Source of the DNA: a virus
Lineage: Duplodnaviria; Heunggongvirae; Uroviricota; Caudoviricetes
Reading direction: 5' to 3' (one strand)
DNA: 19,694 nucleotides
Virus record (IMG/VR): IMGVR_UViG_2703718835_000001
Location: 1 to 19,694 of that record
The notes below the pieces were generated by a model. That model was not told the DNA's origin and made no database searches. It worked only from the letters and a program-made list of their open reading frames with translations. Each line of letters begins with the position of its first letter. Positions within the stretch are counted from its first letter, which is position 1. Of this stretch, positions 3,683 to 19,694 are shown in pieces. The position numbers and the translations under genes are program-made.

Positions 3683-3692
3683 GGTGACTTTT

Positions 3693-4026: not shown

Positions 4027-4098
4027 GATCGCATGATCGTTTGAGGATCGTTTTTGCTAAGGCCCGCCAGAACTGGCGGGCTTTTGCGTAGATCATGC
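4027..4098. repeat. Cluster of four GATC (Dam) sites with a flanking 8-bp inverted repeat
   Basis: GATC at 4027-4030, 4035-4038, 4046-4049 and 4091-4094: four sites in 68 bp, against roughly 0.3 expected by chance. GCATGATC (4031-4038) and GATCATGC (4091-4098) form an inverted repeat flanking the terminator hairpin. Confidence 0.6.
4062..4085 (+). terminator. Rho-independent terminator downstream of the DinI-like gene
   Basis: GC-rich inverted repeat GCCCGCCAG / CTGGCGGGC (4062-4070 / 4073-4081) followed by TTTT (4082-4085). Confidence 0.6.
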
Positions 4099-4130
4099 AG
4101 GTGCATGAAAACCACTACATAAAGCGGGCA

Positions 4131-4156
4131 GGCGTGGCGGGGATACGAGTGCGCGC
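4131..4156. other. Putative cos (cohesive-end) site
   Basis: GGCGTGGCGGGGATACGAG followed by TGCGCGC. The first 13 nt match the remembered 19-nt cohesive ends of P2 (GGCGAGGCGGGGAAAGCAC) and 186 (GGCGTGGCGGGGAAAGCAT). The assignment rests on memory only. Confidence 0.4.
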
Positions 4157-4231
4157 AATACGGTTCGATAAGAATTCACTTCGACTATGTTTTTAGATAA
4201 TCTGGCAATAAAAGGATGAGGAGAATGGCAA

Positions 4232-5473: not shown

Positions 5474-5480
5474 ACAAATG

Positions 5481-5513
5481 ACCCGCGATTCGCCAACGCG
5501 GGTTTTGTTTGTT
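5481..5513. terminator. Terminator hairpin between the convergent cargo gene and Q
   Basis: Stem ACCCGCG (5481-5487), loop ATTCGCCAA, stem CGCGGGT (5497-5503), followed by TTTGTTTGTT. It lies between the cargo stop (5473) and the Q stop (5525). It is strongest for the plus-strand transcript. Confidence 0.6.
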
Positions 5514-5524
5514 CAAAAAAATTA

Positions 5525-6568
5525 TTAAGTTATGTTGGGTTCAAATGCATAAGAATCAAAACGAATTACTTGTTCATTGGCCCAGCTATTCAGTTCCTCA
5601 AAACGCTTCTGTAGGGGGATCAGTTCATTTCGAACAAAAACACGGCTGGCCTTCTCCACATCCCCAAACCCCCCGACATTATTCGGCATAATCCCCATCA
5701 TCTGTGGCGGAACACGATGCGCCGCCATCATGTCATCGCGGCTGACGTTCTTGATGTTCAGAAATTCATCTTTCGCCGCGACTTCTGACAACGGGATGAT
5801 CTGAAGCCCGTCTTTTTTGCCGTTAGGCGAGTACATAAACAGGTTGCGGAAGTTGCCCGGGCCTTTGGCGCTTTTCATTGCGTTGCGGAGGTTGTTCACG
5901 TCCTCCTGGTTCTGCGCGGCATCGGTCATGTACATGATGAAGCCTGCATGACTGCCGTTAATGTAATACTTGCGGCGGAACAGCGTGGCGGACTCGTTGA
6001 GCAGGGCTGATGGAATGGCAGAAAGATAACCGGGCAGGCCGTAGATCTCCTGGTTGATATCCGGTTCCATCAGGTGAAAAATGCTGCCTTTCGTGAACTG
6101 ATACGGCTGGGTTGTCATACCGTATTGCACAAACCAGTAGGTATCCAGGTCTAACCCGCGTCGGGTGTATTTTGCCAGAGCAGGCTCAAGGGCGATAACT
6201 TCACCGAAGCGGTTCGTGCGTTTCTCCAGGTAGGCGTTACCAAATACCAGATAGTCCTGCACAAAACGTGAAAAAGCCTGCTGGCTGAGCAGCGGGTGAG
6301 GGATGTAGGTGCTGGTCAGAATGTTGCACTTTACTGCAATCGGTGAGCTGTGATGCACGGCGGCGCGAAAGGTGCGCGCCAGCCCGTCGAAACTCACTGG
6401 CGGCTCATACCAACGATCTGTCTGTACGCATTCCACATAGTCCAGCAGTTCGCGGCGGTCCAGAACAGGAACGGGATCACCGAAGCTGAATGCTTCGGCT
6501 GAAGTTTGGTTTTTATGCTGGATCTGATTCGTCGCCGCAGCGCGGTTTTTCTTACTCTTTCCCATCAA
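5525..6568 (-). CDS. Q: Portal protein, P2 gpQ family
   Basis: 347-aa ORF, convergent with the upstream cargo gene and overlapping the P stop by 4 bp. Position and size match P2 Q (about 344 aa). Confidence 0.88.
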   Translation of the reverse strand: MMGKSKKNRAAATNQIQHKNQTSAEAFSFGDPVPVLDRRELLDYVECVQTDRWYEPPVSFDGLARTFRAAVHHSSPIAVKCNILTSTYIPHPLLSQQAFSRFVQDYLVFGNAYLEKRTNRFGEVIALEPALAKYTRRGLDLDTYWFVQYGMTTQPYQFTKGSIFHLMEPDINQEIYGLPGYLSAIPSALLNESATLFRRKYYINGSHAGFIMYMTDAAQNQEDVNNLRNAMKSAKGPGNFRNLFMYSPNGKKDGLQIIPLSEVAAKDEFLNIKNVSRDDMMAAHRVPPQMMGIMPNNVGGFGDVEKASRVFVRNELIPLQKRFEELNSWANEQVIRFDSYAFEPNIT

Positions 6569-8331
6569 AAAATCTCCACAATATTGCTGGTATTGGCGGA
6601 CTCGCCCTGCAGCGGTTCGTTAAACAGTGCGTGCATGGTTGCCCACGCCAGATCGGCGTGGCTGGCTTCTTCGCTGCGGCTGGCTTCATAGGTCGGGCGG
6701 TTGCCGCTGGCGGTGGTGGCGCGACGGATTGCCATAAATGACTGCGCAATGTCGGTGTGTCCGGCGTCAAACTCAAGACGGCGGTGGCTGATAATGTCGT
6801 AAGCCTTGAGTACCAGGGCGTTTTTAACGTTGGGGTTGTAGACAAACTCCCGGACGGCAGGAAAAAACGCTTTCACGTTCTCGTAAACCCCGTGACCAAC
6901 GCCGGTTGAGTCGATGCCGATATAGGTCACGTTGTACTGTTCGGTCAGTTTTTTGATGGCGTCAGCCTGGGCGCGAAAGTCCATCCCGCGCCACTGGTGA
7001 CGCTCAAGAATGCGAAACTTACCGCCCGGCACGGCTGGCGGTGCCAGCACCACGCATCCGGCACTGTCGCCGTTCTGCGTACCTTTTGCCGGGTCATAAC
7101 CGATCCACACTTCGCGCCAGCCAAATGGGCGCAGCGCCAGTGCATGAAAGTCGGTCCAGACTTCCCAGCTGTCCACCATGCACGCCTGCAGCTCGCTGAG
7201 CGGGAACACGGACGCGAGATCGTCCACAAACTCGCACATCAGCAGGTTCTGGTATTCGTCCGGGCTGTACTCCATGCGCAACTGGTCAAGGTCGAACAGG
7301 TTACAGCCGCCGCGCACTGCATCTTCCACGGTGACTATCTGGCGGTATTGCCCGTCTGCGCACAGCAGGCCGGGGGCCAGATTGCTGTGGGACAGGTCGA
7401 TGTCCACCTTGTCGGCTTTGTTGCGCCCACGGTTGAACAGCGCACCGGACCAGAACGGATAAGCACTGTGTGTCAGGCTGGATGGCGTGGAAAAATAGGT
7501 TTGTCGCCATTTTTTGTGAATAGCCATACCGGAAGCCACTTTGCGCAGCTCCTGGAATTTCGGTATCCAGAAATATTCATCCAGATACAGGTTGCCGTGG
7601 TAACTCTGAGCCGTGCGGGCATTGGTGCCGAGGAAGTAAAGCGTGGCCCCGTTAGGAAGCACCATCGGATCGCCTTTCAGCTCCACCTCGACTTCTTTGG
7701 CGAAGTCGATGATGTACTGCTTAAAGACGTGAGCCTGTGCCTTACTGGCAGAAAGGAAAATCTGGTTACGTCCGGTAAGCAGGGCGTCAATCAGGGCTTC
7801 ACGGGCAAAGTAAAAGGTCGCGCCGATCTGGCGTGACTTCAGCAGATTACGGATGCGGTTGGTTTTTCCTGCTTCCCACCAGTGGCGCTGGTAGTTGAAC
7901 ATGGAGGAATGGAAGATTTCTTCCAGCTTCTCAATCTGTTCATCGGTGAAAACATTCTTTTCAGGCTGACGGCGCGGGCCTTTGTTGCGGTTGGCGACGT
8001 TAGGGTTTAAATCGGCTTCGTTGCCGCCATTGTTAAACTTGCCGATCCGCGCGTGGCGCTCCGACTGGCGCGACAGCAGATCAATTTCTTTGAAATCTTT
8101 CCCTTCTTTGTGCTCCTTCATAATGAGCTGGCAGTAACGTGCGGCGGTGGTGAGCTGCATCTGATCCAGCGGCCCATAGTCACCCCACTTGTCGCGTTTT
8201 TTCCAGCTGTGAACGGTTGCAACTTTCTCGCCCAGCATTTCAGCAATGCGGGCTACGCGGTATCCCTGAAAGTACAGCAGCATGGCCTGCCGACGGGGAT
8301 CGAGATCTGCGGGTGTCAGTGTGGTGTTCAT
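6565..8331 (-). CDS. P: Terminase large (ATPase) subunit, P2 gpP family
   Basis: 588-aa ORF (P2 gpP is about 590 aa), divergent from O. The start codon overlaps the Q start region, as in P2. Confidence 0.88.
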   Translation of the reverse strand: MNTTLTPADLDPRRQAMLLYFQGYRVARIAEMLGEKVATVHSWKKRDKWGDYGPLDQMQLTTAARYCQLIMKEHKEGKDFKEIDLLSRQSERHARIGKFNNGGNEADLNPNVANRNKGPRRQPEKNVFTDEQIEKLEEIFHSSMFNYQRHWWEAGKTNRIRNLLKSRQIGATFYFAREALIDALLTGRNQIFLSASKAQAHVFKQYIIDFAKEVEVELKGDPMVLPNGATLYFLGTNARTAQSYHGNLYLDEYFWIPKFQELRKVASGMAIHKKWRQTYFSTPSSLTHSAYPFWSGALFNRGRNKADKVDIDLSHSNLAPGLLCADGQYRQIVTVEDAVRGGCNLFDLDQLRMEYSPDEYQNLLMCEFVDDLASVFPLSELQACMVDSWEVWTDFHALALRPFGWREVWIGYDPAKGTQNGDSAGCVVLAPPAVPGGKFRILERHQWRGMDFRAQADAIKKLTEQYNVTYIGIDSTGVGHGVYENVKAFFPAVREFVYNPNVKNALVLKAYDIISHRRLEFDAGHTDIAQSFMAIRRATTASGNRPTYEASRSEEASHADLAWATMHALFNEPLQGESANTSNIVEIF

Positions 8332-8377
8332 GGCACAAACCTACAGCCTTGAATGAAGGCTTTCCCCGCCTGCGGTT

Positions 8378-8395
8378 TGTGTGGTTGTCGGTACA
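8378..8395. promoter_or_regulatory. Late-promoter activator (Ogr/Delta-type) binding dyad TGT-N12-ACA in the P/O divergent region
   Basis: TGTGTGGTTGTCGGTACA in the 142-bp P-O intergenic region. The geometry (centre about 88 bp upstream of the O ATG) fits an activator site near -55 for the O promoter. Confidence 0.45.
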
Positions 8396-8473
8396 AATAC
8401 CGCGCATTGTTTCACTGCCCCCATCACCGCAACCATAAGGCTCCAGTAAGTTTTTTCTAACGGAGCACGGCTC

Positions 8474-9307
8474 ATGACAGTGAAAGCAAAGCGTTTTCGC
8501 ATCGGGGTGGAAGGTGCCACTACCGACGGACGCGAAATCCAGCGTGAATGGCTGGAACAGATGGCAGCCAGCTACAATCCGGCGGTGTACACCGCGCTGA
8601 TTAACCTTGAGCACATCAAGTCTTATCTGCCGGACAGCACCTTTAACCGCTACGGCAAGGTGACGGCGCTGTTTGCTGAAGAAATCACGGAAGGTCCGCT
8701 GGCAGGCAAGATGGCACTGTATGCCGACGTTGAGCCAACGGAGTCCCTGGTGGAACTGGTGAAAAAAGGCCAGAAATTATTCACCTCTATGGAAGTCAGC
8801 CCGAAGTTTGCTGATACGGGCAAAGCCTACCTGGTCGGCCTGGCTGCCACTGATGATCCCGCCAGTCTGGGTACGGAAATGCTGACATTCAGCGCCAGTG
8901 CAGCCCATAACCCGCTGGCAAACCGCAAGCAGAATCCCGCCAATCTTTTTACCGCTGCAGAGGAAACGGTGATCGAACTGGAAGAAATCCAGGAGGACAA
9001 GCCGTCCCTGTTTGCCCGCGTCACGGCGCTGTTCACCAAAAAAGAGCAGTCCGATGATGCCCGGTTCTCTGATGTGCATAAGGCCGTGGAACTGGTCGCC
9101 ACGGAGCAGCAAAACCTGAGCACGCGCACCGAAAAATCCCTGTCTGAGCAGGAAGAACGCCTGTCTGAGATGGAGACTGCCCTGCAGGCACAACAAGCCG
9201 CCTTTAACGAACTGGTGGATAAGCTGAGTCATGAAGACAGCCGCCAGGACTACCGCCAGCGTGCAACAGGCGGTAACGCCCCCGCTGACACTCTGACCAA
9301 TTGCTGA
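8474..9307 (+). CDS. O: Capsid scaffolding protein, P2 gpO family
   Basis: 277-aa ORF (P2 gpO is about 284 aa) in the position between P and N. The acidic C-terminal half is typical of scaffold proteins. Confidence 0.85.
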   Translation: MTVKAKRFRIGVEGATTDGREIQREWLEQMAASYNPAVYTALINLEHIKSYLPDSTFNRYGKVTALFAEEITEGPLAGKMALYADVEPTESLVELVKKGQKLFTSMEVSPKFADTGKAYLVGLAATDDPASLGTEMLTFSASAAHNPLANRKQNPANLFTAAEETVIELEEIQEDKPSLFARVTALFTKKEQSDDARFSDVHKAVELVATEQQNLSTRTEKSLSEQEERLSEMETALQAQQAAFNELVDKLSHEDSRQDYRQRATGGNAPADTLTNC

Positions 9308-9323
9308 TGGAGCACAAAACCCG

Positions 9324-10382
9324 ATGAAGAAGAATACCCGCTTTGCTTTTAACGCTTACCTGCAGCAGCTGGCGCGTCTGAACGGTGTGGCAGTTGAAGA
9401 ACTGTCCAGCAAGTTCACCGTCGAACCGTCCGTGCAGCAGACGCTGGAAGACCAGATCCAGCAGTCCGCCGCTTTCCTGACACTGATTAACGTCACGCCA
9501 GTGACTGAGCAGTCCGGTCAGTTGCTGGGGCTGGGTGTTGGCAGCACCATTGCCGGAACCACTGATACCACCGCGAAAGAGCGTGAACCTGTCGATCCGA
9601 CGCTGATGGTCGATGTGGAATATAAATGCGAGCAGACCAACTTTGACACGGTGCTGACCTACGCGAAGCTGGACCTGTGGGCGAAGTTTCAGGATTTCCA
9701 GGTGCGTATCCGTGACGCCATCGTGAAACGTCAGGCACTGGACCGCATCATGATCGGCTTTAACGGCGTGAAGCGCGCGAAAACCTCTAACCGTAGCGAA
9801 AACCCGCTGCTGCAGGATGTGAACAAAGGCTGGTTGCAGAAAATCCGTGAGGATGCACCGGATCACGTCATGGGCAGCACCACCACGGGCGGTGAAACCA
9901 CACCGGGTACGGTGAAAGTCGGGAAAGGTGGCGAATATGCCAACCTGGACGCCGTGGTGATGGATGCCGTCAATGAGCTTATCGACGTGGTCTACCAGGA
10001 CGATGACGATCTGGTGGTGATTTGCGGGCGTGAACTGCTGTCTGACAAGTATTTCCCGCTGGTCAACAAAGAGCAGGAGAACAGTGAAAAACTGGCTGCC
10101 GATATGATCATCAGTCAGAAACGCATGGGGGGCTTGCAGGCCGTGCGTGCGCCATTCTTCCCGCCGAATGCGCTGCTGATCACCCGTCTGGATAACCTGT
10201 CCATCTACTGGCAGGAAGACACCCGCCGCCGTTCAGTTATCGACAACCCGAAACGTGACCGGATTGAAAATTTTGAATCCGTTAACGAAGCCTATGTGGT
10301 TGAAGACTACCGCTGCGCTGCACTGGTGGAAAACATCCAGATTGGCGATTTCAGCGCCGCCGCAGCAGAAACCGGAGCGTAA
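9324..10382 (+). CDS. N: Major capsid protein, P2 gpN family
   Basis: 352-aa ORF. Long collinear similarity to remembered P2 gpN, e.g. 'TRFAFNAYL', 'KFTVEPSV', 'LDLWAKFQDFQVRIRDAIVKRQ', 'VGKGGEYANLDA', 'ISQKRMG'. Confidence 0.92.
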   Translation: MKKNTRFAFNAYLQQLARLNGVAVEELSSKFTVEPSVQQTLEDQIQQSAAFLTLINVTPVTEQSGQLLGLGVGSTIAGTTDTTAKEREPVDPTLMVDVEYKCEQTNFDTVLTYAKLDLWAKFQDFQVRIRDAIVKRQALDRIMIGFNGVKRAKTSNRSENPLLQDVNKGWLQKIREDAPDHVMGSTTTGGETTPGTVKVGKGGEYANLDAVVMDAVNELIDVVYQDDDDLVVICGRELLSDKYFPLVNKEQENSEKLAADMIISQKRMGGLQAVRAPFFPPNALLITRLDNLSIYWQEDTRRRSVIDNPKRDRIENFESVNEAYVVEDYRCAALVENIQIGDFSAAAAETGA

Positions 10383-10385
10383 TCC

Positions 10386-11036
10386 ATGAGCCTGAGTCCC
10401 GCACGGCAGCATCGCCTGCGCGTTCAGGCTGAACAGGCCGCCCGCGAGGGCGGCAGCGTTCGCCACGCGTCGGGCTATGACCTGATGCTGCTGCAACTGG
10501 CGGAAGACCGACGCCGTCTCAAGGGCGTTCAGTCCACGGTGAAAAAAGCGGAAATAAAGGTGGAGCTGCTGCCGAAATATGCCGCCTGGGCGGAGGGCGT
10601 CCTGGCTGCCGGAGGCGCTCAACAGGATGACGTGCTGATGTACGTGATGCTGTGGCGCATTGATGCCGGAGATTATGCCGGGGCGCTGGAGATTGGGCGT
10701 CATGCCCTGCGTCATGGCTGGGTGATGCCGCTGGGTAACCGCAACGTGCAGACCGTGCTGGCAGAGGAAATGGCAGATGCAGCCCAGAGCGCAATGCTTG
10801 CCGCCACCGGCTTTGATGCCGATCTGTTGCTGCAGACGCTGGAGCTGACAGACGGTCTGGATATGCCGGACCAGTCACGGGCGCGTCTGCATAAAGCGAT
10901 TGGCGCTGTCCTGAGTGAAAGCAATCCGGCTTCCGCCCTTAATCATATCAACCATGCGTTACAGCTCGATCCCCGCTGTGGCGTGAAAAAAGACAAACAG
11001 CAGCTGGAGCGCAGACTGCGCAATGACAGCCGCTGA
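10386..11036 (+). CDS. M: Terminase small (endonuclease) subunit, P2 gpM family
   Basis: 216-aa ORF directly after N. Motifs 'RVQAEQAAREGG..RHA', 'QDDVLMYVMLWRID.GDYAGALEIGR' and 'TLELT...DMPD' match remembered P2 gpM. Confidence 0.85.
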   Translation: MSLSPARQHRLRVQAEQAAREGGSVRHASGYDLMLLQLAEDRRRLKGVQSTVKKAEIKVELLPKYAAWAEGVLAAGGAQQDDVLMYVMLWRIDAGDYAGALEIGRHALRHGWVMPLGNRNVQTVLAEEMADAAQSAMLAATGFDADLLLQTLELTDGLDMPDQSRARLHKAIGAVLSESNPASALNHINHALQLDPRCGVKKDKQQLERRLRNDSR

Positions 11037-11131
11037 CAGAACGTGCCCCCGCGCACGGGCGGCACGGGGTGGCGAAAGGCACTGCCACATCAAAACCCCG
11101 TCCACCGCCCTTTATTTCAGGAGAAAGCAGC

Positions 11132-11596
11132 ATGAAGTTTGTTGCGCCAGAACAGGCACCGGAACAGGCGGAAATCATCAGAAATACGCCGTTCTGGCCT
11201 GATGTGGACCTGTCGGAGTTTCGCAGTGTCATGCGCACTGACGGCACAGTGACGCAGCCGCGTTTAAAGCAGGTTGCGCTGTCGGCAATTTCGGAGGTCA
11301 ACGCAGAGCTGTATGAGTTTCGCAGACGTCAGCAGATGCTGGGATATGCCTCGCTGGCAGAGGTTCCGGCGGAACAGCTGGAGGGCAAAAGTGAGCGCAT
11401 TCATCACTATTTCAACGCGGTTTACTGCTGGGCACGCGCCATGCTCAACGAGCGTTATCAGGACTATGACGCCACGGCATCCGGTGTGAAGCGGGGCGAG
11501 GAACTGGCGGAAGCAAGCGGTGATTTGTGGCGTGACGCCCGCTGGGCCATCAGCCGGGTGCAGGATGCGCCGCACTGCACAGTGGAGCTTATCTGA
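11132..11596 (+). CDS. L: Head completion/stabilisation protein, P2 gpL family
   Basis: The ORF track begins at 11069, but the internal ATG at 11132 has an AGGAGA ribosome-binding site and gives 'MKFVAPE...', collinear with gpL ('ELYE.R', 'LWRD.RWA..R.Q'). Confidence 0.82.
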   Translation: MKFVAPEQAPEQAEIIRNTPFWPDVDLSEFRSVMRTDGTVTQPRLKQVALSAISEVNAELYEFRRRQQMLGYASLAEVPAEQLEGKSERIHHYFNAVYCWARAMLNERYQDYDATASGVKRGEELAEASGDLWRDARWAISRVQDAPHCTVELI

Positions 11597-11799
11597 TGAA
11601 AGTGCGTGCGCATCAGTATGACACGGTGGACGCGCTTTGCTGGCGTCATTACGGGCGCACGCAGGGTGTCACGGAGCAGGTACTGAAGGCAAATCCGGGG
11701 CTTGCCGAATTTGGCCCCTTTTTACCTCACGGGCTGCAGGTGGAGCTGCCGGACATTCCGACCACCACCACCGTGCAGACCGTCCAGCTATGGGACTGA
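11596..11799 (+). CDS. X: Tail protein X, P2 gpX family
   Basis: 67 aa. 'YGRTQGVTEQVLKANPGLAEFGPFLPHG..VELPD' closely matches remembered P2 gpX ('YGRTEGVVETVLAANPGLAELGAVLPHGTAVELPD'). Confidence 0.88.
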   Translation: MKVRAHQYDTVDALCWRHYGRTQGVTEQVLKANPGLAEFGPFLPHGLQVELPDIPTTTTVQTVQLWD

Positions 11800-11802
11800 A
11801 TT

Positions 11803-12018
11803 ATGACGCTTGAGCGAATCAGCGCCTTTATCACGTATTGCATCGCCGTTGTGCTGGCCTGGCTGGGCGATTTGTCCATCAAGGATGCCTCAACGCTGGG
11901 CGGCCTGATGATCGGTGTGCTGATGCTGGCTATCAACTGGTACTACAAACACAAAGCCTACCAGCTTCTGCGCGACGGGCAGATCTCGCGGGAGGACTAT
12001 GAATCCATCAATCGTTAA
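11803..12018 (+). CDS. Holin (two predicted transmembrane segments; possible pinholin)
   Basis: 71 aa with two hydrophobic stretches ('ISAFITYCIAVVLAWLG', 'LGGLMIGVLMLAINWYY') and a charged C-terminus. Immediately upstream of, and overlapping, the endolysin. Confidence 0.7.
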   Translation: MTLERISAFITYCIAVVLAWLGDLSIKDASTLGGLMIGVLMLAINWYYKHKAYQLLRDGQISREDYESINR

Positions 12019-12514
12019 ACGCTGCCTTGTCGGGGCCGTGCTGGCTATTGCTGCCACGCTGCCGGGGTTTCAGCAACTTCACACCTCCGTGGAGGGGCTG
12101 AAACTGATTGCCGATTACGAAGGCTGTCGTCTGCAGCCGTATCAGTGCAGCGCGGGTGTCTGGACCGACGGCATTGGTAATACGTCGGGCGTCATTCCCG
12201 GCAAAACTATTACGGAACGACAGGCAGCAGAAGGACTGATCTCCAACGTGCTACGTGTGGAGCGGGCGCTGGAAAGGTGTGTGAAGCAACAGCCGCCGCA
12301 GAAGGTGTATGACGCTACGGTGTCGTTTGCCTTCAACGTGGGGACGGGCAATGCCTGTAGTTCCACGCTGGTGAAATTGCTCAATCAGCGGCGCTGGGCG
12401 GATGCGTGCCGACAGTTGCCGCGCTGGGTTTATGTGAAAGGTGTTTTTAATCAGGGGCTGGATAACCGCCGTGCGCGGGAGATGGCCTGGTGCCTTAAAG
12501 GAGCTGGACTATGA
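11999..12514 (+). CDS. K: Endolysin, lysozyme family with N-terminal signal-anchor-release (SAR) domain
   Basis: 171 aa. N-terminal hydrophobic 'LVGAVLAIAATLPGF' followed by the lysozyme motif 'EGLKLIADYEGCRLQPYQCSAGVWTDGIGNT' (catalytic E-8aa-D-5aa-T type). Confidence 0.85.
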   Translation: MNPSIVKRCLVGAVLAIAATLPGFQQLHTSVEGLKLIADYEGCRLQPYQCSAGVWTDGIGNTSGVIPGKTITERQAAEGLISNVLRVERALERCVKQQPPQKVYDATVSFAFNVGTGNACSSTLVKLLNQRRWADACRQLPRWVYVKGVFNQGLDNRRAREMAWCLKGAGL

Positions 12515-12939
12515 CACGTGCGCTGGCGGTAGTGGCGGCGCTGGCACTCGTTGCGCTGGGCTGGCAGTCGTGGCGGCTTAACAGCGCCAGCCACACCATC
12601 GAAACGCAGCGCGCGGCGCTGAAAAGTAAAGCGCACGAACTAACGAAGAAAAATAGCCAGCTGATCAGTCTGTCCATTCTGGCTGAAACCAACAATCGGG
12701 AGCAGGCGCGGCTCTACGCCGAAGCAGAACAGACCAGTGCACTGCTGAGACAACGACAACGCCGGATTGAGGAACTGAAACGTGAGAACGAGGATTTACG
12801 CCGCTGGGCTGATACTCCTTTGCCTGCTGACATTATCCGGCTGCGGAAACGTCCGGCATTCACCGGAGGTGCAGCTTACCGTCAGTGGTTGTCCGCGAGT
12901 GACGCCGTGTCGGCTGGATCAGGCAACGCCGCGCACTAA
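12511..12939 (+). CDS. lysB: i-spanin (LysB/Rz-like)
   Basis: 142 aa. N-terminal transmembrane segment 'ALAVVAALALVALGW', then a coiled-coil-like charged region. Start overlaps the endolysin stop. Confidence 0.8.
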   Translation: MTRALAVVAALALVALGWQSWRLNSASHTIETQRAALKSKAHELTKKNSQLISLSILAETNNREQARLYAEAEQTSALLRQRQRRIEELKRENEDLRRWADTPLPADIIRLRKRPAFTGGAAYRQWLSASDAVSAGSGNAAH

Positions 12940-13072
12940 CGGTGATCTGAACGCGTTGCTGGATGAAACGGAGGCCGCCTGGGCGGTCTGTGCAGACAAA
13001 GTGGACATGATTATTGCGTGTCAGGAGCGAAACAGTGAACAAACCACAATCCCTGCGCCACGCCCTCAATAA
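12782..13072 (+). CDS. lysC: o-spanin lipoprotein (LysC/Rz1-like), overlapping the lysB 3' end in another frame
   Basis: 96 aa. Lipoprotein signal with lipobox 'LTLSGC', Pro-rich mature region. Overlapping out-of-frame with lysB, as in P2. Confidence 0.7.
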   Translation: MRTRIYAAGLILLCLLTLSGCGNVRHSPEVQLTVSGCPRVTPCRLDQATPRTNGDLNALLDETEAAWAVCADKVDMIIACQERNSEQTTIPAPRPQ

Positions 13073-13466
13073 AGCGGTGCCTTATGTCCGCAATACCCCG
13101 GACAAACTGCATCTGTTTGTGGATAACGGTTCGCTGGTTGCTACGGGGGCCAGCTCCATGTCATGGGAGTACCGTTACACCCTGAACGTGGTGATTGAGG
13201 ATTTCAGTGGCGACCAGAATCTGCTGATGGCCCCGGTTTTGCTGTGGCTGCGTGATAACCAGCCCGATGCCATCAATAACCCGGCGTTATGGGAAAAACT
13301 ATTCACCTTTGAGGTGGATATTCTGCGCAACGATGTCTGTGATATCAGCCTTAACCTGCAACTGACGGAACGTGTGCTGGTCAGCACTGACGGCACTGTG
13401 TCCAGCGTTGAAGCTGTAGCGGAACCCGATGAACCTGAAGAAATGTGGACGGTGAAACGTGGCTGA
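13035..13466 (+). CDS. R: Tail completion protein, P2 gpR family
   Basis: The ORF track begins at 13014. A GTG at 13035 with an AGGAG ribosome-binding site 7 nt upstream is preferred. 'PDKLHLFVDNGSL' is typical of gpR. Start is uncertain. Confidence 0.78.
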   Translation: MNKPQSLRHALNKAVPYVRNTPDKLHLFVDNGSLVATGASSMSWEYRYTLNVVIEDFSGDQNLLMAPVLLWLRDNQPDAINNPALWEKLFTFEVDILRNDVCDISLNLQLTERVLVSTDGTVSSVEAVAEPDEPEEMWTVKRG

Positions 13467-13905
13467 ACTGCAGAAGGTGGACGACTGGCTGAGTGCCTTG
13501 CTGGCGAATCTGGAGCCAGCCGCAAGAAGCCGCATGATGCGCCAGCTGGCGCAGGAACTGCGCCGGACACAGCAGCAGAATATCAGGATGCAGCGCAACC
13601 CTGACGGCAGCAGCTATGAACCGCGACGGGTAACAGCACGCAGTAAAAAAGGCCGTATCAAACGTCAGATGTTTGCAAAGCTGCGCACCACAAAATACCT
13701 GAAAACTGCCGCCAGCGCCGATTCTGCCAGCGTGCAGTTTGAAGGTAAGGTGCAGCGTATTGCCCGCGTTCACCATTACGGCCTGCGTGATCGCGTCAGT
13801 CGTAAAGGGCCGGAGATCCGTTACGCAGAGCGTCGCCTGCTGGGTGTAAATGATGATGTTGAGACAATGACCCGCGACATGATTCTGCAATGGCTGGCGG
13901 GGTGA
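13459..13905 (+). CDS. S: Tail completion protein, P2 gpS family
   Basis: 148 aa with a GTG start overlapping the R stop. Position and size match gpS. Confidence 0.8.
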   Translation: MAELQKVDDWLSALLANLEPAARSRMMRQLAQELRRTQQQNIRMQRNPDGSSYEPRRVTARSKKGRIKRQMFAKLRTTKYLKTAASADSASVQFEGKVQRIARVHHYGLRDRVSRKGPEIRYAERRLLGVNDDVETMTRDMILQWLAG

Positions 13906-13909
13906 TCTT

Positions 13910-13927
13910 TGTATCAGCACTGATACA
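13910..13927 (+). promoter_or_regulatory. Late-promoter activator dyad TGT-N12-ACA upstream of V
   Basis: TGTATCAGCACTGATACA, part of the near-perfect palindrome TTGTATCAG-CA-CTGATACAA (13909-13928), in the S-V intergenic region where P2 has its V late promoter. Confidence 0.5.
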
Positions 13928-13973
13928 AGTTGCAGCACTGCCGCCTTTCTTCTCCTGATGGCAACCTTTCTCT

Positions 13974-14552
13974 ATGAACGCACAATTAACCGAAATCATG
14001 CGCCTTATCACCAACCTGATCCGCACTGGGGTAGTCACCGAAGTGGACAGGGCAAACTGGCTGTGTCGGGTGAAAACTGGCGACCTCGAAACCAACTGGA
14101 TTAACTGGCTGACACTGCGCGCGGGCAAATCGCGCACCTGGTGGAAACCGTCTGTGGGCGAGCAGGTTGTGCTGTTCAGCCTGGGTGGCGATCTGGAAAC
14201 CGCGTTTGCCCTGCCTGCGGTCTACTCAAACCAGTTTCCACCACCTTCAGATTCTGAGGACGGCAACGTGGTTGAGTACCCGGACGGTGGCTGGTTTGAA
14301 TACGAACCCGCCACCGGGCGCTGGTATGTCAGGGGCATCAAATCAATGGTCATTGAAGCCGCTGACAACATCACCATGAAAACCAGTGAGTTTGTACTGG
14401 AGGCTGACCGCACGCGCATTAACAGCGAAGTGGTGATCAATGGTGGCGTTACCCAGGGCGGCGGAGCGATGAGTTCTAACGGGATCGTGGTTGATGCGCA
14501 TCAGCATACTGGCGTCCTGAAAGGCGGCGACACAACCGGAGGCCCGGTATGA
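13974..14552 (+). CDS. V: Baseplate spike/hub protein, P2 gpV family
   Basis: 192 aa. 'IRTGVVTEVD', 'RAGKSRTWWKPSVGEQVVLFSLGGDLETAFALPAVYS' and 'SSNGIVVDAHQHTG' match remembered P2 gpV. Confidence 0.88.
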   Translation: MNAQLTEIMRLITNLIRTGVVTEVDRANWLCRVKTGDLETNWINWLTLRAGKSRTWWKPSVGEQVVLFSLGGDLETAFALPAVYSNQFPPPSDSEDGNVVEYPDGGWFEYEPATGRWYVRGIKSMVIEAADNITMKTSEFVLEADRTRINSEVVINGGVTQGGGAMSSNGIVVDAHQHTGVLKGGDTTGGPV

Positions 14553-14908
14553 CGCTTTATAGCGGGATGAACAATACCAGCGGTAAAGCCATTACTGATA
14601 TTGACCATCTGCGCCAGTCGGTGCGGGACATTCTGCTGACGCCGCAGGGTAGCCGCATTGCTCGTCGGGAATATGGTTCCCTGCTGTCGGCACTGATAGA
14701 TCAGCCACAAAATCCGGCGTTACGCCTGCAGGTTATGTCGGCTGTGTATGTGGCACTGAGTCGCTGGGAGCCACGGCTGACGCTGGATTCCATCACTATT
14801 AACAGCAATTTTGACGGTTCAATGGTGGTGGCGCTGAACGGGCGGCGTAATAACGGTGTGCCTGTTTCCCTTTCCGTATCAACAGGAGCAGAGAATGGCA
14901 GTGATTGA
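14549..14908 (+). CDS. W: Baseplate protein, P2 gpW (gp25-like) family
   Basis: 119 aa. ATGA overlap with the V stop. 'LRQSVRDILLTPQGSRIARREYGS' is typical of gp25/gpW. Confidence 0.85.
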   Translation: MTLYSGMNNTSGKAITDIDHLRQSVRDILLTPQGSRIARREYGSLLSALIDQPQNPALRLQVMSAVYVALSRWEPRLTLDSITINSNFDGSMVVALNGRRNNGVPVSLSVSTGAENGSD

Positions 14909-15803
14909 CCTTTCGCAGTTGCCTGCGCCGCAGATTGTGGATGTGCCGGACTTTGAGACGTTGCTTGCCGAACGCAAGGCAGAATTTGTGGCGCTTCATC
15001 CGAAAGATGAGCAGGAAGCAGTGAGCCGCACACTGGAACTGGAATCTGAACCCGTCACCAAATTGCTGCAGGAGAACGCTTATCGTGAGTTGCTTCTGCG
15101 CCAGCGCATTAACGAAGCCGCGCAGGCGGTGATGGCGGCTTATGCCATAGGGAGCGATCTGGACCAGCTCGCTGCCAATTACAACGTGAAACGCCTGACG
15201 GTGACGCCTGCTGATAATGACGCTGTGCCGCCCGTCGCGGCTGTGATGGAAAGTGATGAAGCGTTACGCCTGCGTGTGCCTGCGGCTTTTGAAGGGCTTT
15301 CGGTTGCGGGGCCAACTGCCGCTTATGAATTTCATGCCCGAAGCGCCGACGGTCGGGTGGCGGATGCCAGTGCAACCAGTCCGGCACCTGCAGAGGTGGT
15401 GCTGACTGTCCTGAGCCGCGAAGGCGATGGAACAGCAGAAAAAGACCTGCTGGACGTGGTGGAAAAAGCTCTGAACAGTGAGAACGTCCGCCCAGTGGCT
15501 GACCGTCTTACGGTTCGCAGCGCAGAAATCATCCCGTACCGGGTGGAAGCCACTATTTTTCTCTATCCGGGACCGGAAGCAGAGCCGGTAATGGCAGCGG
15601 CAAAAGCCAGCCTGCAGAAGTACATCGCCAGTCAGACGCGTCTTGGTCGGGATATTCGCCGTAGCGCCATCTTTGCCGCCCTGCATGTTGAGGGTGTGCA
15701 GCGTGTGGAGCTGGCTTCTCCTCTGGCGGATATGGTCCTGAACAAAACACAGGCGGCATCATGTACGCAGTGGAGCGTAACCAACGGAGGAACGGATGAA
15801 TAG
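14895..15803 (+). CDS. J: Baseplate wedge protein, P2 gpJ family
   Basis: The ORF track begins at 14856. The ATG at 14895 with an AGGAG ribosome-binding site gives 302 aa, the size of P2 gpJ. Confidence 0.85.
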   Translation: MAVIDLSQLPAPQIVDVPDFETLLAERKAEFVALHPKDEQEAVSRTLELESEPVTKLLQENAYRELLLRQRINEAAQAVMAAYAIGSDLDQLAANYNVKRLTVTPADNDAVPPVAAVMESDEALRLRVPAAFEGLSVAGPTAAYEFHARSADGRVADASATSPAPAEVVLTVLSREGDGTAEKDLLDVVEKALNSENVRPVADRLTVRSAEIIPYRVEATIFLYPGPEAEPVMAAAKASLQKYIASQTRLGRDIRRSAIFAALHVEGVQRVELASPLADMVLNKTQAASCTQWSVTNGGTDE

Positions 15804-16401
15804 TCTGCTGCCACCGGGTTCAACACCACTGGAGCGCCGATTGGCGCAAACCTGCAGCGGGATTTCTGATCTGCAGGTGCCGCTTCGTGACTTGTGGAAT
15901 CCGGTAACCTGTCCGGTCAGTTTCCTGCCTTATCTCGCCTGGGCGTTCTCTGTGGATCGCTGGGACGAGGGCTGGACAGAAAGCGTCAAGCGCCAGGTGG
16001 TGAAGGATGCTTTTTATATTCATCAGCATAAAGGGACCACCAGTGCCGTGCGGCGGGTGGTGGAGCCGTTCGGCTTTTTGATCCGCATTATTGAGTGGTG
16101 GCAGACCGGAGAGGCACCGGGCACGTTTCGCCTGGATATCGGCGTGCAGGACCAGGGCATCACTGAAGATACCTATCTGGAACTTGAGCGACTGATAAGC
16201 GATGCCAAACCATGTAGCCGCCACATGATCGGCATGTCCATCAATCTGCAGACCAGCGGCCCGCATTGGGTGGGAGCCGCCAGCTATCTTGGCGAAGAAA
16301 TCACGATCTATCCGTATATCAACGAAACAATTATTTCTGGCGGCACCGCGCATGAAGGCGGGGCGGTCCATGTTATTGACACAATGAGAGTGAATCCATG
16401 A
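15796..16401 (+). CDS. I: Baseplate protein, P2 gpI family
   Basis: 201 aa. Overlaps the J stop. Conserved position between J and the tail fibre gene. Confidence 0.82.
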   Translation: MNSLLPPGSTPLERRLAQTCSGISDLQVPLRDLWNPVTCPVSFLPYLAWAFSVDRWDEGWTESVKRQVVKDAFYIHQHKGTTSAVRRVVEPFGFLIRIIEWWQTGEAPGTFRLDIGVQDQGITEDTYLELERLISDAKPCSRHMIGMSINLQTSGPHWVGAASYLGEEITIYPYINETIISGGTAHEGGAVHVIDTMRVNP

Positions 16402-18086
16402 GCACAAAATTTTATACCCTGCTGACGGAGATTGGTGCGGCGAAACTTGCCAGCGCCGCCGCGCTCGGTGTGCCGCTTAAAATTACCCATATGGCGGTGG
16501 GGGATGGTGGTGGAGCATTGCCGACGCCGGACGCAAAGCAGACTGCACTGGTAAATGAGAAACGCCGGGCTGCGCTGAATATGCTCTATATCGACCCGCA
16601 GAACAGCAGCCAGATTATTGCTGAACAGGTGATCCCCGAAAACGAGGGCGGTTGGTGGATCCGTGAAGTGGGCCTGTTTGATGAATCCGGGGCATTGATT
16701 GCCGTGGGCAACTGCCCGGAAAGCTATAAGCCGCAACTGGCTGAAGGCAGCGGGCGCACCCAGACCGTGCGCATGGTGCTGATTACCAGCAGTACGGAAA
16801 ATATCACCCTGAAAATCGACCCTGCTGTAGTGCTGGCAACCCGCAAGTATGTGGATGACAAGGTACTGGAGCTGAAGGTGTATGTGGATGACCTGATGGC
16901 AAAGCATCTTGCCGCACCGGACCCGCATTCACAGTACGCGCCAAAAGCCAGCCCGACGTTTACCGGAACCCCCAAAGCGCCAACTCCAGAGGCAGGGAAT
17001 AACACCACGCAGGTTGCGACCACCGCGTTTGTTCAGGCGGCACTGCTCACCCTGATTGACGGTGCGCCAGCCACGCTGGACACGCTGAAAGAAATTGCAG
17101 CTGCTATTAATAATGACCCGAAATTCAGTACCACCATTAACAATGCGCTGGCACTCAAAGCACCGCTGTCGAGTCCTGCACTCACCGGAACGCCAACAGC
17201 ACCTACTGCGGCACAGTCGGTCAACAATACACAGATTGCCACCACGGCTTTTGTGAAATCGGCAATTGCGGCAATGGTGGGTTCTGCACCTGCGGCACTG
17301 GATACGCTGAACGAACTGGCGGCGGCGCTGGGGAATGACCCGAACTTTGCCACGACAATGCTCAATTCGCTGGCGGGAAAACAACCGCTGGATAATACGC
17401 TGACTAATTTGAGTGGAAAGGATGTTGCTGGTCTTCTCGCATACCTTGGTTTAGTAAATAACGGCGCAGTCGGTCGTCTGATTGGCATGCAGATAATCAA
17501 GACGTCTGGCACTTACACCAAAACTCCCGGAGCAATGTTCGCGGATGTCATCGCTATTGGGGGCGGTGGGGGCGGCGGATGGGCAACTTCCACAGCAAAC
17601 TATAACGCCGCGGGTGGTGGTGGCGGTGGCGGCGGAATGGCACGGGGTCTCTTTAACCTGTCTGCAATATCAACCGTGCTTGTCACGATTGGTGCGGGTG
17701 GTAATGGCGGTATTGCGTCGACGATAACCCATGGCGCACAGGGCGGCACGACGACTTTTGGCTCTTATCTCTCAGCAGGTGGAGGCCAGCCAGGCAACGG
17801 CTGCACCGCGTCAGTCTCCTCTGCGTCATGTGGCATGGGCGGTAATGGTGGCACTTCGACCGTGGGTGCCCTTTTGTGCAACGGGTACGCCGGGCTGCCC
17901 GGTGTGATGGCAACCCCAACAGCAGTCGGAGGGACTGTAGGTTCCGGACTTGGCGGCGGTAGCTTTATTTCTGGCCCTGGTGGGTATGGTGCTGGTGGTA
18001 ATGGCGCTGCAACCAGTGGTGGGGCGCAGAATGTCAACGGCAACCCGGGCAATGCTGGCGTGATTATTATTTTGGAGTATGCGTAA
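16398..18086 (+). CDS. H: Tail fibre protein, P2 gpH family, with internal tail-fibre repeats and a glycine-rich C-terminal receptor-binding region
   Basis: 562 aa. The N-terminus 'MSTKFYTLLTEIGAAKLA...' is gpH-like. Two tandem ~75-aa repeats carry 'TGTP.APT......NT..ATTAFV' and '...AP..LDTL.E.AAA..NDP.F'. The C-terminal ~180 aa are Gly-rich with polyglycine runs. Confidence 0.88.
   Translation: MSTKFYTLLTEIGAAKLASAAALGVPLKITHMAVGDGGGALPTPDAKQTALVNEKRRAALNMLYIDPQNSSQIIAEQVIPENEGGWWIREVGLFDESGALIAVGNCPESYKPQLAEGSGRTQTVRMVLITSSTENITLKIDPAVVLATRKYVDDKVLELKVYVDDLMAKHLAAPDPHSQYAPKASPTFTGTPKAPTPEAGNNTTQVATTAFVQAALLTLIDGAPATLDTLKEIAAAINNDPKFSTTINNALALKAPLSSPALTGTPTAPTAAQSVNNTQIATTAFVKSAIAAMVGSAPAALDTLNELAAALGNDPNFATTMLNSLAGKQPLDNTLTNLSGKDVAGLLAYLGLVNNGAVGRLIGMQIIKTSGTYTKTPGAMFADVIAIGGGGGGGWATSTANYNAAGGGGGGGGMARGLFNLSAISTVLVTIGAGGNGGIASTITHGAQGGTTTFGSYLSAGGGQPGNGCTASVSSASCGMGGNGGTSTVGALLCNGYAGLPGVMATPTAVGGTVGSGLGGGSFISGPGGYGAGGNGAATSGGAQNVNGNPGNAGVIIILEYA
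16944..17393 (+). repeat. Tandem duplication (2 x ~225 bp) inside H encoding tail-fibre repeat units
   Basis: Copy 1 (about 16944-17168) and copy 2 (about 17169-17393) encode 'KASPTFTGTPKAPTPEAGNNTTQVATTAFV...' and 'SSPALTGTPTAPTAAQSVNNTQIATTAFV...', clearly related repeats. Confidence 0.6.
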
Positions 18087-18482
18087 ATGAACTATGCAAT
18101 TATCAAAAATGGTATCGTAGAAAATATTGTTATCTGGGATGGCGAGTCAGAGTGGCCTGAATCAGCAAGTGCCATTCTCTCTACCGATGGTGTTGGTATC
18201 GGCTGGCATTACGATAACGATGTTTTTAGTGCGCCACCGCCAACTAATAAAGAACTTGAGGCAGCAAAACAGCAGAAAATAGCCAATAATCTGGCTACAA
18301 AAAACGCACTGATGAGTGAGGCGACACAACAGATTAGCGTTTTACAGGATGCTGTTGATTTGAGTATGGCGACAGATGCAGAAACCGTAGCGCTGCCATT
18401 GTGGAAGCAATACCGGGTATTGCTGAGCAGGATTGACGCTAACACTAATGCAGAGATTAGCTGGCCGGAAAAGCCAGCTTGA
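18087..18482 (+). CDS. G: Tail fibre assembly chaperone, P2 gpG/Tfa family
   Basis: 131 aa. The C-terminal 'LPLWKQYRVLLSRID...ISWPEKP' is typical of Tfa proteins. Lower GC than upstream tail genes. Confidence 0.85.
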   Translation: MNYAIIKNGIVENIVIWDGESEWPESASAILSTDGVGIGWHYDNDVFSAPPPTNKELEAAKQQKIANNLATKNALMSEATQQISVLQDAVDLSMATDAETVALPLWKQYRVLLSRIDANTNAEISWPEKPA

Positions 18483-18492
18483 ATTACTTCAT

Positions 18493-19575
18493 CTATTTTT
18501 TATTTAGCAATTTATAACAAGCCGCAAGAACATCGTCTGGTGATATATTCGACATCGGAATTGCTGAGCCAGACCAGCCATGTGCATTTATAAAATCTTT
18601 TGTGCCTACCTTGTTTTGTATCTCTGGTGGGAAAACCGTAATACAGTTCGAAAATTCCTCAGGGTATGGCACAAATGCATGCAAACCAGTACCATTCGAA
18701 ATACAAACAGTTTTAATCCCTGCCAGAGCACCAACATGGAACATGCCTGTGTCGTTTGCAATCAAAAGTTCAGATGAAAGAACAATATCGCACGACTCAG
18801 ATAATGTAGTCCTTCCAACAAAACCTGCTACAATATCCTTGTTATCGATATGCTCAATAAGAACATTGTAATCTGAAATTTCATCATTGGAGCCAATGAT
18901 TTTAAAATTGGCATTGTATGAAGATGATATGCTGTTTATTACATTTGCTAATTGTAATACAGGGTATTTTTTAAAAGGCGCAGAGGCTCCCAGTGAAATG
19001 CAAATATCAATCTTGCCACTGTCTTTATTTTTATTTTTTAGTGGAATTTCAACTTCGAATTTAGGAAATGGTATAATCTCAGAGAAAAACTCTTTATTCA
19101 TATCCAGGACATGCTTTGAAAAATCAATATCCGGCTTTGTGGAATAGCCAAAAAACTCCCTTTGATGGTCAGGTATATTCATACCATTGATGATGGCTCT
19201 ATCCCTCACACTAGAGATAAATGGAGTAACACGCAAAGTAGTTGACGCACCCCACCAATCTGGAACTATAATCTCATCGAAATTTGAGTGCTTAATTAAA
19301 TTTCTGATGTAAAACCTGATGGCTTTATTTTTAATCTTAGTATATGTGCTCTCTTTGGTTTGCACATAAGGAGTAACCTTATTACAATCAACCCAAATGA
19401 AATGATTAAATATATTCATATCAAACTTGAGAGAAAAATCTTTGAATGCAGTGTTGCCAAGCAAGGTGAATTTAGCGTGCTTATATTTTTCATCATCGCG
19501 GAGTGATTTCATGAATACTCGTGATAATAAGTGATCTCCGATGCCCACCAAGCTAACTATCAATACTTTTTTCAT
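18493..19575 (-). CDS. Glycosyltransferase family 9 (ADP-heptose:LPS heptosyltransferase-like) cargo protein
   Basis: 360 aa from the ATG at 19575, with a GAGGT ribosome-binding site upstream on the minus strand (the ORF track extends to 19611). N-terminal 'MKKVLIVSLVGIGDHLL' and C-terminal 'IANDTGMFHVGALAGIKTVCISNGTG' resemble GT9 heptosyltransferase signatures (WaaC 'MRVLIVKTSSMGDVLHTLP' and 'VSVDTGLSHLTAALDRPNITVYGPT', from memory). AT-rich. Convergent with G, with a 10-bp gap. Confidence 0.7.
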   Translation of the reverse strand: MKKVLIVSLVGIGDHLLSRVFMKSLRDDEKYKHAKFTLLGNTAFKDFSLKFDMNIFNHFIWVDCNKVTPYVQTKESTYTKIKNKAIRFYIRNLIKHSNFDEIIVPDWWGASTTLRVTPFISSVRDRAIINGMNIPDHQREFFGYSTKPDIDFSKHVLDMNKEFFSEIIPFPKFEVEIPLKNKNKDSGKIDICISLGASAPFKKYPVLQLANVINSISSSYNANFKIIGSNDEISDYNVLIEHIDNKDIVAGFVGRTTLSESCDIVLSSELLIANDTGMFHVGALAGIKTVCISNGTGLHAFVPYPEEFSNCITVFPPEIQNKVGTKDFINAHGWSGSAIPMSNISPDDVLAACYKLLNKK

Positions 19576-19694
19576 TATGTACCTCAATTTTTTTGTGTTA
19601 ATGGTACACACTCAGGAGTCATGAGTCGATAGTATCATGGCGTCGGGACAGGGGTTTACTACTCTCATCTTAAAGCAACCTTTGAAAATGGTCA

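Follow-up and report, generated by a model that had tools for sequence, protein, structure and literature searches.

A divergent family 9 glycosyltransferase gene within an invertible tail-fibre segment of P2-like prophages

Why a P2-like prophage should carry an AT-rich glycosyltransferase gene directly beside its tail-fibre genes, and whether that gene is free-standing cargo or part of the fibre-switching machinery itself, is the question raised by the right-hand end of the stretch analysed here (hereafter the window), a tailed-phage sequence of 19,694 nucleotides (Caudoviricetes; IMG/VR record IMGVR_UViG_2703718835_000001, positions 1 to 19,694) that comprises an entire 19,694-bp draft contig (LONV01000079.1). 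The gene encodes a protein of glycosyltransferase family 9 (GT9). The original prediction, made from the sequence alone, placed it as lysogenic-conversion cargo at the Z/fun position of P2, between the tail-fibre assembly gene G and the sheath gene FI, and proposed that it adds heptose or another sugar to the inner core of lipopolysaccharide (LPS). We found that it is indeed foreign, AT-rich cargo between G and FI but that it is not free-standing, because it lies inside an invertible segment. Our favoured reading, to which we assign a probability of about 0.5 as a whole, is that a divergent GT9 gene, acquired from a distant source rich in AT, has become one arm of a Gin-type invertible segment for tail fibres in a P2-like (Peduoviridae) prophage and, as the cargo of that arm, encodes an enzyme that decorates an envelope glycan.

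The segment is bounded by two sites of about 26 bp that are inverted relative to each other and have a common TT core, one of them at the junction between the constant and variable parts of the tail-fibre gene H. They were located by mapping homology breakpoints among the window and three other loci (designated L001, L002, and L011; other copies of the locus are numbered likewise). BLAST against the e14-like prophage L001 returned a block at window positions 17443–19678 with 99.2% identity and reciprocal junctions, and the cassette boundaries coincide exactly with the TT cores. All four combinations of outer half-sites (fibre-constant side or invertase side) with inner half-sites (tip side or GT9 side) were seen, joined at the TT core; the outer right half-site of the window, CATTTTCAAAGG, deviates from the canonical TTTTCTTAAACG in being 2 bp shorter. 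A degenerate site pattern matched only twice in the window, at 17437 (+) and 19687 (−), with 0.16 matches expected by chance and 4 of 200 shuffles reaching two, a pattern that was partly derived from these same sequences. Generic inverted-repeat searches of the window, L001, and L002 (8-base seed) returned chance pairs only, since the 26-bp sites are too imperfect to be detected in this way.

A recombinase of 188 amino acids is encoded in the sister prophages; it contains Resolvase and HTH_7 domains and is closely homologous to Mu Gin (3UJ3, E 1e-93 over 184 residues). Prophages in which the invertase is intact include those of E. coli CT29 (CP032073) and EC21Z-137 (CP101233). In the annotation of EC21Z-137, a “recombinase family protein” begins ~55 bp past the equivalent of the window end and is followed by the sheath gene FI, which is why the invertase could not be seen when the original prediction was made. 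The second arm of the segment is the GT9 gene, accompanied by neither a tip nor a chaperone gene, and the locus is therefore not a canonical switch between two tips and two host ranges.

The same P2-type phage is found in both orientations, and the inversion is thus real. In the window orientation, H has its full length, glycine-rich tip included, and the late tail operon runs antisense to GT9. The opposite orientation is present in L011, a Logan assembly with a P2-type tail module, in which Tail_P2_I is followed by an H of 353 amino acids, by GT9 on the same strand, and then by the chaperone and tip on the opposite strand. At the L011 junction, the H-constant half-site of the L003/L004 allele is joined at TT to the GT9-side half-site, and the sequence reads TAC CTT GCT TTA AGA TGA, followed by 89 nt and the GT9 ATG. 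The flipped fibre protein (H′) hence stops three codons past the core, with the first 12 nt of the GT9 leader supplying A-L-R-stop. Because the two sites have too little sequence in common, this junction is not an assembly artefact.

Among the P2-type places read, L011 is the flipped one, whereas the window, L003 (together with 14 similar places), L004, L005, L006, L007, L010, and L012 are all in the fibre-ON orientation. This excess may be explained, by analogy with Mu, by slow inversion together with a founder effect, in which only fibre-ON virions would infect. In the e14-like copies L008 (the same place as L001), L009, and L016 (an IMG/VR contig), GT9 lies behind the constant part of stfP; their cassettes sit in e14/Mu-like tail modules in which stfP is truncated and an intact invertase of 184 amino acids adjoins. 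The reciprocal pair of junctions is displayed by all of these e14-like elements (L001/L008, L009, and L016).

Tip, chaperone, and GT9 travel together. The 1.6-kb stretch comprising the assembly gene and GT9 was identified in five of 5,426 complete E. coli genomes, three of which have the window-like arrangement and two of which have the cassette flanked by a recombinase gene and a truncated stfP within a tail module of e14/Mu-like type. The tip plus chaperone allele (at least 80% of its length) occurs only in these same five GT9-bearing genomes, and among deposited phages the tip was not found apart from one partial match of 44%. Across 11 loci, GT9 (1,083 nt) and its 101-nt leader show no nucleotide differences, and the chaperone gene (396 nt) is identical in 10 of the 11, with one synonymous change in L005, while the P2-like and e14-like host backgrounds differ by 4–6%. 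Because GT9 and its leader are identical while the host phages have diverged to this extent, sequence comparison indicates that the tip–chaperone–GT9 cassette has spread horizontally, and recently, between unrelated prophages. The tip (645 nt) behaves differently from the rest of the cassette: window positions 17448–18086 differ from the corresponding regions of L003–L009 and L016 by 8–37 substitutions between loci, often with at least as many non-synonymous as synonymous changes, and the tip carries runs of 7–9 glycines, which suggests tip-specific diversification or recombination. The coordinates of the segment and the sequences of the crossover sites are given in Table 1.

Table 1. Features of the invertible tail-fibre segment in the window and crossover sites in related loci
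Feature	Position	Strand	Description
Tail-fibre gene H, 562 aa	16398–18086	+	Pfam Phage_tail_fib 219 bits, residues 1–150; Gly_rich_2 37.5 bits, residues 370–553
H constant part	16398–17447	+	e14-like cassette homology starts at 17443
H invertible glycine-rich tip	17448–18086	+	Gly_rich_2
Left crossover site, inside H	17434–17459		TTCTCGCATACC TT GGTTTAGTAAAT; 12-bp half-sites, TT core 17446–17447
Right crossover site	19665–19690		minus strand CATTTTCAAAGG TT GCTTTAAGATGA; core 19677–19678
Invertible segment, core to core, 2.2 kb	17446–19678		tip, assembly gene, and GT9
Tail-fibre assembly (chaperone) gene, P2 G equivalent, 131 aa	18087–18482	+	Pfam Caudo_TAP 82.5 bits
GT9-family glycosyltransferase gene	18493–19575	−	360 aa, 1,083 nt, 36% GC; identical in 11 loci
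GT9 leader, 101 nt	19576–19676	−	GAGG Shine–Dalgarno at 19585–19582
Crossover site, L002, invertase side (reverse complement)			TTTTCTTAAACG TT GCTTTAAGATGA
Crossover site, L001, invertase side			TTTTCATAAACG TT GGTTTAGTAAAT
Crossover site, L001, in stfP (reverse complement)			CTCTCGAAAACC TT GCTTTAAGATGA

The open reading frame (ORF) that constitutes the second arm is intact. In the ORF listing of the window it extends from 18493 to 19611 on the minus strand and has 372 codons when read from a GTG; we favour the ATG at 19575, which is preceded by a GAGG Shine–Dalgarno sequence 6 nt upstream. As the original prediction had described, the ORF is AT-rich and convergent with the Caudo_TAP fibre-assembly gene, the two stops being 10 bp apart; its GC content is 36% overall compared with about 56%, ranging along the ORF from 0.28 to 0.43 against 0.53–0.66 in the fibre tip and ~0.55–0.60 in the phage structural genes. 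The last 119 bases of the window (19576–19694) are non-coding and contain the leader and the 26-bp crossover site.

The GT9 assignment was borne out by three lines of evidence. Pfam Glyco_transf_9 (PF01075) matched residues 141–292 above its gathering score (30.4 bits against a cut-off of 22, E 3.1e-7), and the N- and C-terminal signatures originally quoted for the family, MKKVLIVSLVGIGDHLL and ANDTGMFHVGALAGIKTVCISNG, are both found in the translation. An AlphaFold model from a seven-sequence alignment (predicted local distance difference test [pLDDT] 75.9, predicted template modelling score [pTM] 0.80) predicts the C-terminal donor domain with confidence and residues 68–74 and 109–150 of the N-terminal acceptor domain poorly. 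A different fold would have spoken against the assignment, but the model proved closest to GT9 structures: the top nine Foldseek matches in the PDB are all GT9 proteins, including 3TOV from Veillonella, WaaF (1PSW), and WaaC (6DFE, 2H1H, 2GT1, and 2H1F), with E 6e-16 to 5e-11, TM 0.57–0.74, and 14–18% identity, whereas other GT-B families appeared at E 3e-8 or worse. The catalytic and donor motifs are retained. Asp14 of GIGDH, the putative catalytic residue, aligns with the HLGD of 3TOV in the N-terminal G-D motif, FKKYP aligns with the donor motifs AKRWP of WaaF and DKHWP of WaaC, and NDTGMFH aligns with NDSGLMH of WaaF and VDTGLSH of WaaC. Since Pfam score, fold, and motifs all agree, GT9 membership stands, and the product is, as far as sequence and model can tell, an active-looking, highly divergent glycosyltransferase of GT-B fold.

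The divergence is evident from the family models and from the relatives. The best NCBIfam models are heptosyltransferases II (TIGR02195, 35.8 bits), I (TIGR02193, 25.5 bits), and III (TIGR02201, 15.1 bits), each well under its equivalog cut-off (134.6, 185.3, and 170.2, respectively), and PRK10916 and PRK10422 gave 15.3 and 14 against cut-offs of 569 and 467. A word-indexed search of 5.8 billion proteins returned, apart from a 33-sequence cluster of the GT9 protein itself, no more than six relatives, at 24–31% identity. An exhaustive profile search of 1.84 billion cluster representatives placed these relatives in a large subfamily, of which 1,950 representatives were recovered at E ≤ 1e-30. 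Searching one genome per species yielded 53 loci of this subfamily, the full-length matches all being at most 30% identical; most are from Bacteroidota (Cytophagales, Mucilaginibacter, Saprospiraceae, and Chitinophaga) and Ignavibacteria, with a few from Leptospira and other lineages and none from Enterobacteriaceae. The neighbours of these relatives include GT1/GT2/GT61 and GT4 glycosyltransferases, methyltransferases, pyruvyl transferase (PS_pyruv_trans), GNVR/Wzz, and NeuB. In Leptospira idonii, Bac_transf, Wzm, and Wzt with its C-terminal domain are encoded directly upstream, and the Mucilaginibacter relative is accompanied by an epimerase, a GT1, three GT2s, an MBOAT protein, and a second GT9 nearby. 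All of the relatives inspected are in surface-polysaccharide gene clusters, and no Kdo/heptose inner-core operon was found around them. With scores far under the equivalog cut-offs and relatives in O-polysaccharide and exopolysaccharide (EPS) clusters, the part of the original prediction that assigned a WaaC/WaaF/WaaQ-type transfer of heptose to the LPS inner core is unsupported by the comparisons.

By contrast, the view that a GT9 enzyme is unusual cargo for a phage was upheld. No PHROGs family was found for the protein, neither tblastn of the protein against 50,697 phage genomes nor megablast against phages gave a match, and PADLOC gave none either. In BFVD only distant GT9-like models from uncultured phages were identified, a plasmid search recovered just two distant megaplasmid GT9 fragments, and no copy of the GT9 leader was found in JGI metagenome contigs. 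The entry “Glycosyltransferase family 9” has been listed in tables of Pseudomonas aeruginosa prophage cargo, as an annotation only. The identical protein occurs in two unrelated prophage types, and the index of the assembly collection lists it in 442 blocks.

How might an arm of this kind be expressed? In Mu, the arm that abuts the constant part is the arm that is expressed, and GT9 is directed, once flipped, as an alternative arm would be, lying with its own ribosome-binding site 89 nt downstream of the 353-aa H′ on the same strand, where transcription of the late tail operon would include it. Promoter scans in both orientations found no usable sigma-70 promoter for the full ORF in the GT9 leader: the single strong match (10/12) places its −10 element on the ATG and cannot serve the full ORF, and promoter and terminator counts are no higher than in shuffles in either orientation. 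No terminator is predicted in the 10-bp gap between G and GT9, and in the window orientation late transcription through H and G would run antisense into GT9. In the flipped orientation, a terminator-like hairpin is located ~200 nt past the GT9 stop. Because no usable promoter was seen in the leader, and by analogy with Mu, the output of GT9 is probably orientation-dependent; its transcription would depend largely on upstream sequence and would be high from the late operon when the segment is flipped. Lysogenic conversion as first proposed would require expression in the lysogen, for which no usable sigma-70 promoter was found in the leader.

As for what the enzyme does, modification of an envelope glycan is our best guess. 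The substrate class would be of polysaccharide type, given that the relatives adjoin Wzm/Wzt, Bac_transf initiator, glycosyltransferase, and Wzz/NeuB genes. The enzyme may act at the cytoplasmic face on a lipid-linked envelope glycan, candidate acceptors being an undecaprenyl-pyrophosphate-linked O-antigen or an intermediate of the enterobacterial common antigen type, or the outer core. The resulting change would alter the surface of the lysogen, most plausibly by masking the receptor of the linked glycine-rich tip (self-exclusion); we consider receptor masking because GT9 is strictly linked to a single tip and chaperone allele.

Several points weigh against this reading. An extended −10-like element, TGATACTAT, was noticed by eye in the leader and could allow orientation-independent expression. 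The acceptor-binding N-terminal domain is the least confident part of the model (pLDDT <50 at residues 109–150) and diverges from the relatives. The tip-less fibre of the flipped state looks costly for the phage, and the GT9 arm could be an evolutionary accident. With no diversity among GT9 copies, selection on the gene cannot be shown and a dN/dS estimate is impossible. In addition, unless a Pin-type enzyme can serve it in trans, the window copy may be locked in the fibre-ON state, as its right flank is of the type seen in L007, which has lost the cis-encoded invertase or has it in truncated form. Invertases of this type are known to be interchangeable.

The evidence for locking comes from the right flanks. 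The right core is separated by 16 nt from the end of the window, which falls within a perfect palindrome (GGTCACCTATATAGGTGACC) and before the position of the invertase, and the window's variant of the outer right half-site is otherwise found only in L007; the regions concerned are window positions 19679–19694 and L007 positions 9860–9911. In L007, no more than the last ~45 nt of the canonical invertase are left, and a second resolvase breaks off at residue 88, precisely where a crossover site lies (AATATTCG TT GGTTTGGGAGAA), and is joined to another tip′/chaperone pair with a Gp53-like_C tip; the rearranged flank spans L007 positions 8100–9900. A 140-aa ORF without a Pfam or PADLOC match lies upstream of GT9 in L007, in the same orientation. 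Another kind of damage was observed in L005 (E. coli NH-21), in which the invertase beside the GT9-side site is replaced at 8638–9800 by an insertion sequence transposase (HTH_Tnp_1/rve); this copy is probably locked as well.

Among other explanations, the one that survives best is that GT9 is an inert or nearly neutral passenger, left by a recent illegitimate insertion that destroyed the alternative tip and chaperone arm and hitch-hiking with a successful tip and with exchange at invertase sites. The absence of nucleotide diversity, and hence of any signal of purifying selection, would be expected of such a passenger, as would its rarity in E. coli, the truncated fibre of the flipped state, and the distance to the next-best relative (31% identity among 5.8 billion proteins). 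However, functionless foreign AT-rich genes usually decay, whereas this ORF is intact, has all catalytic motifs and a good Shine–Dalgarno sequence, and is oriented as an alternative arm; its occurrence as an identical protein across the assembly collection in two unrelated prophage types also argues against inertness. We regard the passenger explanation as unlikely, though worth keeping in view.

A bolder extension of the favoured reading is of similarly low likelihood. In this view, tip, chaperone, and GT9 would constitute a self-contained “receptor-binding plus receptor-masking” unit that moves horizontally and fits any fibre gene with a Gin/Pin site, and the segment would be a two-state switch linking the infectivity of virions to the remodelling of surface glycans. 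Flipping would turn the fibre off and bring GT9 under the upstream (late or fibre) promoter, so that clonal lysogens would be split into phage-producing and glycan-modified cells, a phase-variable form of lysogenic conversion.

More doubtful still is a free-standing Z/fun moron encoding a WaaC/WaaF/WaaQ-type inner-core heptosyltransferase that depends on ADP-heptose, with a promoter of its own that would drive constitutive expression in either orientation. The gene sits between G and FI, E. coli makes ADP-heptose, the WaaC/WaaF-like donor motifs are conserved in a genuine GT9 protein, and heptosyltransferases II and I are its best NCBIfam matches. Against this, the scores are 4- to 10-fold under every equivalog cut-off, identity to WaaC/WaaF is 14–16%, the subfamily belongs to O-polysaccharide/EPS clusters rather than inner-core operons, and the gene lies within the invertible segment, not beside it, with no usable promoter found in its leader.

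Very improbable, finally, is a late virion-modifying enzyme that would glycosylate H′ or another virion protein to give a glycan-tipped or shielded particle as an alternative “fibre”, in the manner of autotransporter heptosyltransferases or mycobacteriophage virion glycosylation: although inversion sets GT9 in the late operon 89 nt downstream of H′, facing as an alternative tip would, the leader scans yielded no usable promoter, GT9-like protein heptosyltransferases (TibC/Aah) exist, and a viral protein annotated “Aah/TibC” is among the structural matches (in BFVD, distant, TMq 0.51), this is a purely geometric reading, no acceptor motif was identified in H′, the surroundings of the relatives are polysaccharide clusters, and no TibC/Aah-type structure is among the top 50 Foldseek matches in the PDB. 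A TibC/Aah-like protein glycosyltransferase identity is accordingly not favoured by the structure search.

The closest known systems to the segment described here are the G segment of Mu with Gin, the C segment of P1 with Cin, and the P segment of e14 with Pin. Among sequenced examples, Escherichia phage Cartapus (NC_070909; Peduoviridae, Elveevirus) comes nearest. Its serine invertase is 97% identical in DNA to that of the sister prophages, and it has the same outer half-sites and TT core in 26-bp sites, one placed where the constant part of the fibre gene meets the variable part and the other by the invertase. The layout of Cartapus is canonical, with H and tfa followed by tfa′ and tip′ in reverse and then by the invertase and FI, whereas in the present segment the 1,083-bp GT9 gene stands where Cartapus has tfa′ and tip′. 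Invertible tail-fibre segments have been described as alternating between fibre structures, as host-range switches. Unlike those of Mu type, the present segment alternates between a complete fibre and a truncated fibre with GT9, not between two host ranges. The 101-nt leader was considered as a remnant of an alternative tip, but no similarity to the Cartapus tip′ was seen by eye.

According to its published description, the P2 Z/fun hotspot is of mixed purpose: fibres are swapped there, other cargo is carried, and a DNA invertase is often present along with inverted neighbours. By position, which is the only basis of this comparison, the present gene is in the same slot between fibre-assembly and sheath genes, but it lies between the crossover sites, and the description mentions no glycosyltransferase. 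In xbp1, a P2-like tailocin of Xenorhabdus, glycosyltransferase genes occur in the hypervariable fibre region, and a change of LPS for self-resistance has been proposed. Both loci thus carry such genes among the swappable or invertible fibre genes of a P2-type contractile tail; xbp1 differs in having other families (a mannosyltransferase and an unspecified glycosyltransferase), no invertase, and no geometry of arm replacement, and its function is only proposed. Inversion of the e14 P segment driven by PinQ has been reported to create StfE2, which blocks T2 adsorption. This is likewise a Pin/Gin-type inversion in a prophage fibre segment with a non-virion output that benefits the host, and the present cassette also occurs in e14-like elements; the output there is a chimeric fibre protein, whereas here it would be an enzyme gene behind the constant part of the fibre.

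At the level of the enzyme, WaaC (2H1H and 6DFE), WaaF (1PSW), and Veillonella 3TOV have the same GT-B fold (TM 0.62–0.74) and the same GD catalytic Asp, K-x-P, and DTGxxH motifs, and are set apart from the present protein by the low identity noted above, by its different and poorly modelled acceptor domain, and by its membership of a separate large O-polysaccharide/EPS subfamily. Prophage-borne modification of a surface glycan that gives exclusion is known from gtrABC. GT9, unlike the GtrABC system, would be a soluble or peripheral cytoplasmic GT-B enzyme and not a periplasmic GT-C enzyme. No GtrA, GtrB, or serotype-specific GT-C gene was found in the window segment or in any of the 11 loci, in which PF01075 is the sole glycosyltransferase domain.

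P2-like invertible fibre loci, the mixed-purpose Z/fun hotspot with its invertases, and GT9 annotations in prophages are thus already known; in the literature, we found no description of a glycosyltransferase replacing an arm of a Gin-type fibre segment, or of a tip–chaperone–GT9 cassette. The replacement of one arm by an enzyme gene implies that host-range machinery could gate a trait of the host surface, and the cassette physically joins a receptor-binding tip gene to the gene of a candidate receptor-modifying enzyme while moving between P2-like and e14-like prophages. If functional, it would give E. coli a new means of making its surface glycans phase-variable and would be a new example of a phage carrying “key and lock-changer” together. 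It would also provide an entry point to a large GT9 subfamily, as yet uncharacterised, whose members in environmental polysaccharide clusters number in the thousands. Were it inert, it would still be a clean natural case of cargo capture at invertase sites.

Some further features of the window and its sister prophages were observed. At 18257–18445 (+), inside the fibre-assembly gene, Rfam IS009 (RF02111) matched below threshold (50.6 bits against a gathering score of 117, E 5e-10), which most likely reflects DNA homology of the fibre-assembly gene rather than an RNA gene; the Rfam scan of the window gave nothing else. Between the portal gene and a DinI-like gene (3621–3926), the window is AT-rich a second time (GC ~0.39). 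An ORF of 413 amino acids located there (4232–5473, +) has a TIR domain of the kind found in CAP12/Pycsar effectors (Pfam 26.5 bits against 24.7; PADLOC TIR effector E 2e-9) and is probably anti-phage defence cargo in the other P2 hotspot. In some sister prophages, an extra reverse-strand ORF without a Pfam match lies between the tail genes S and V (219 or 384 aa; L006 15695–16354 and L005 15685–16839). The window is without this ORF, and the S–V interval in the sister prophages is another small cargo slot.

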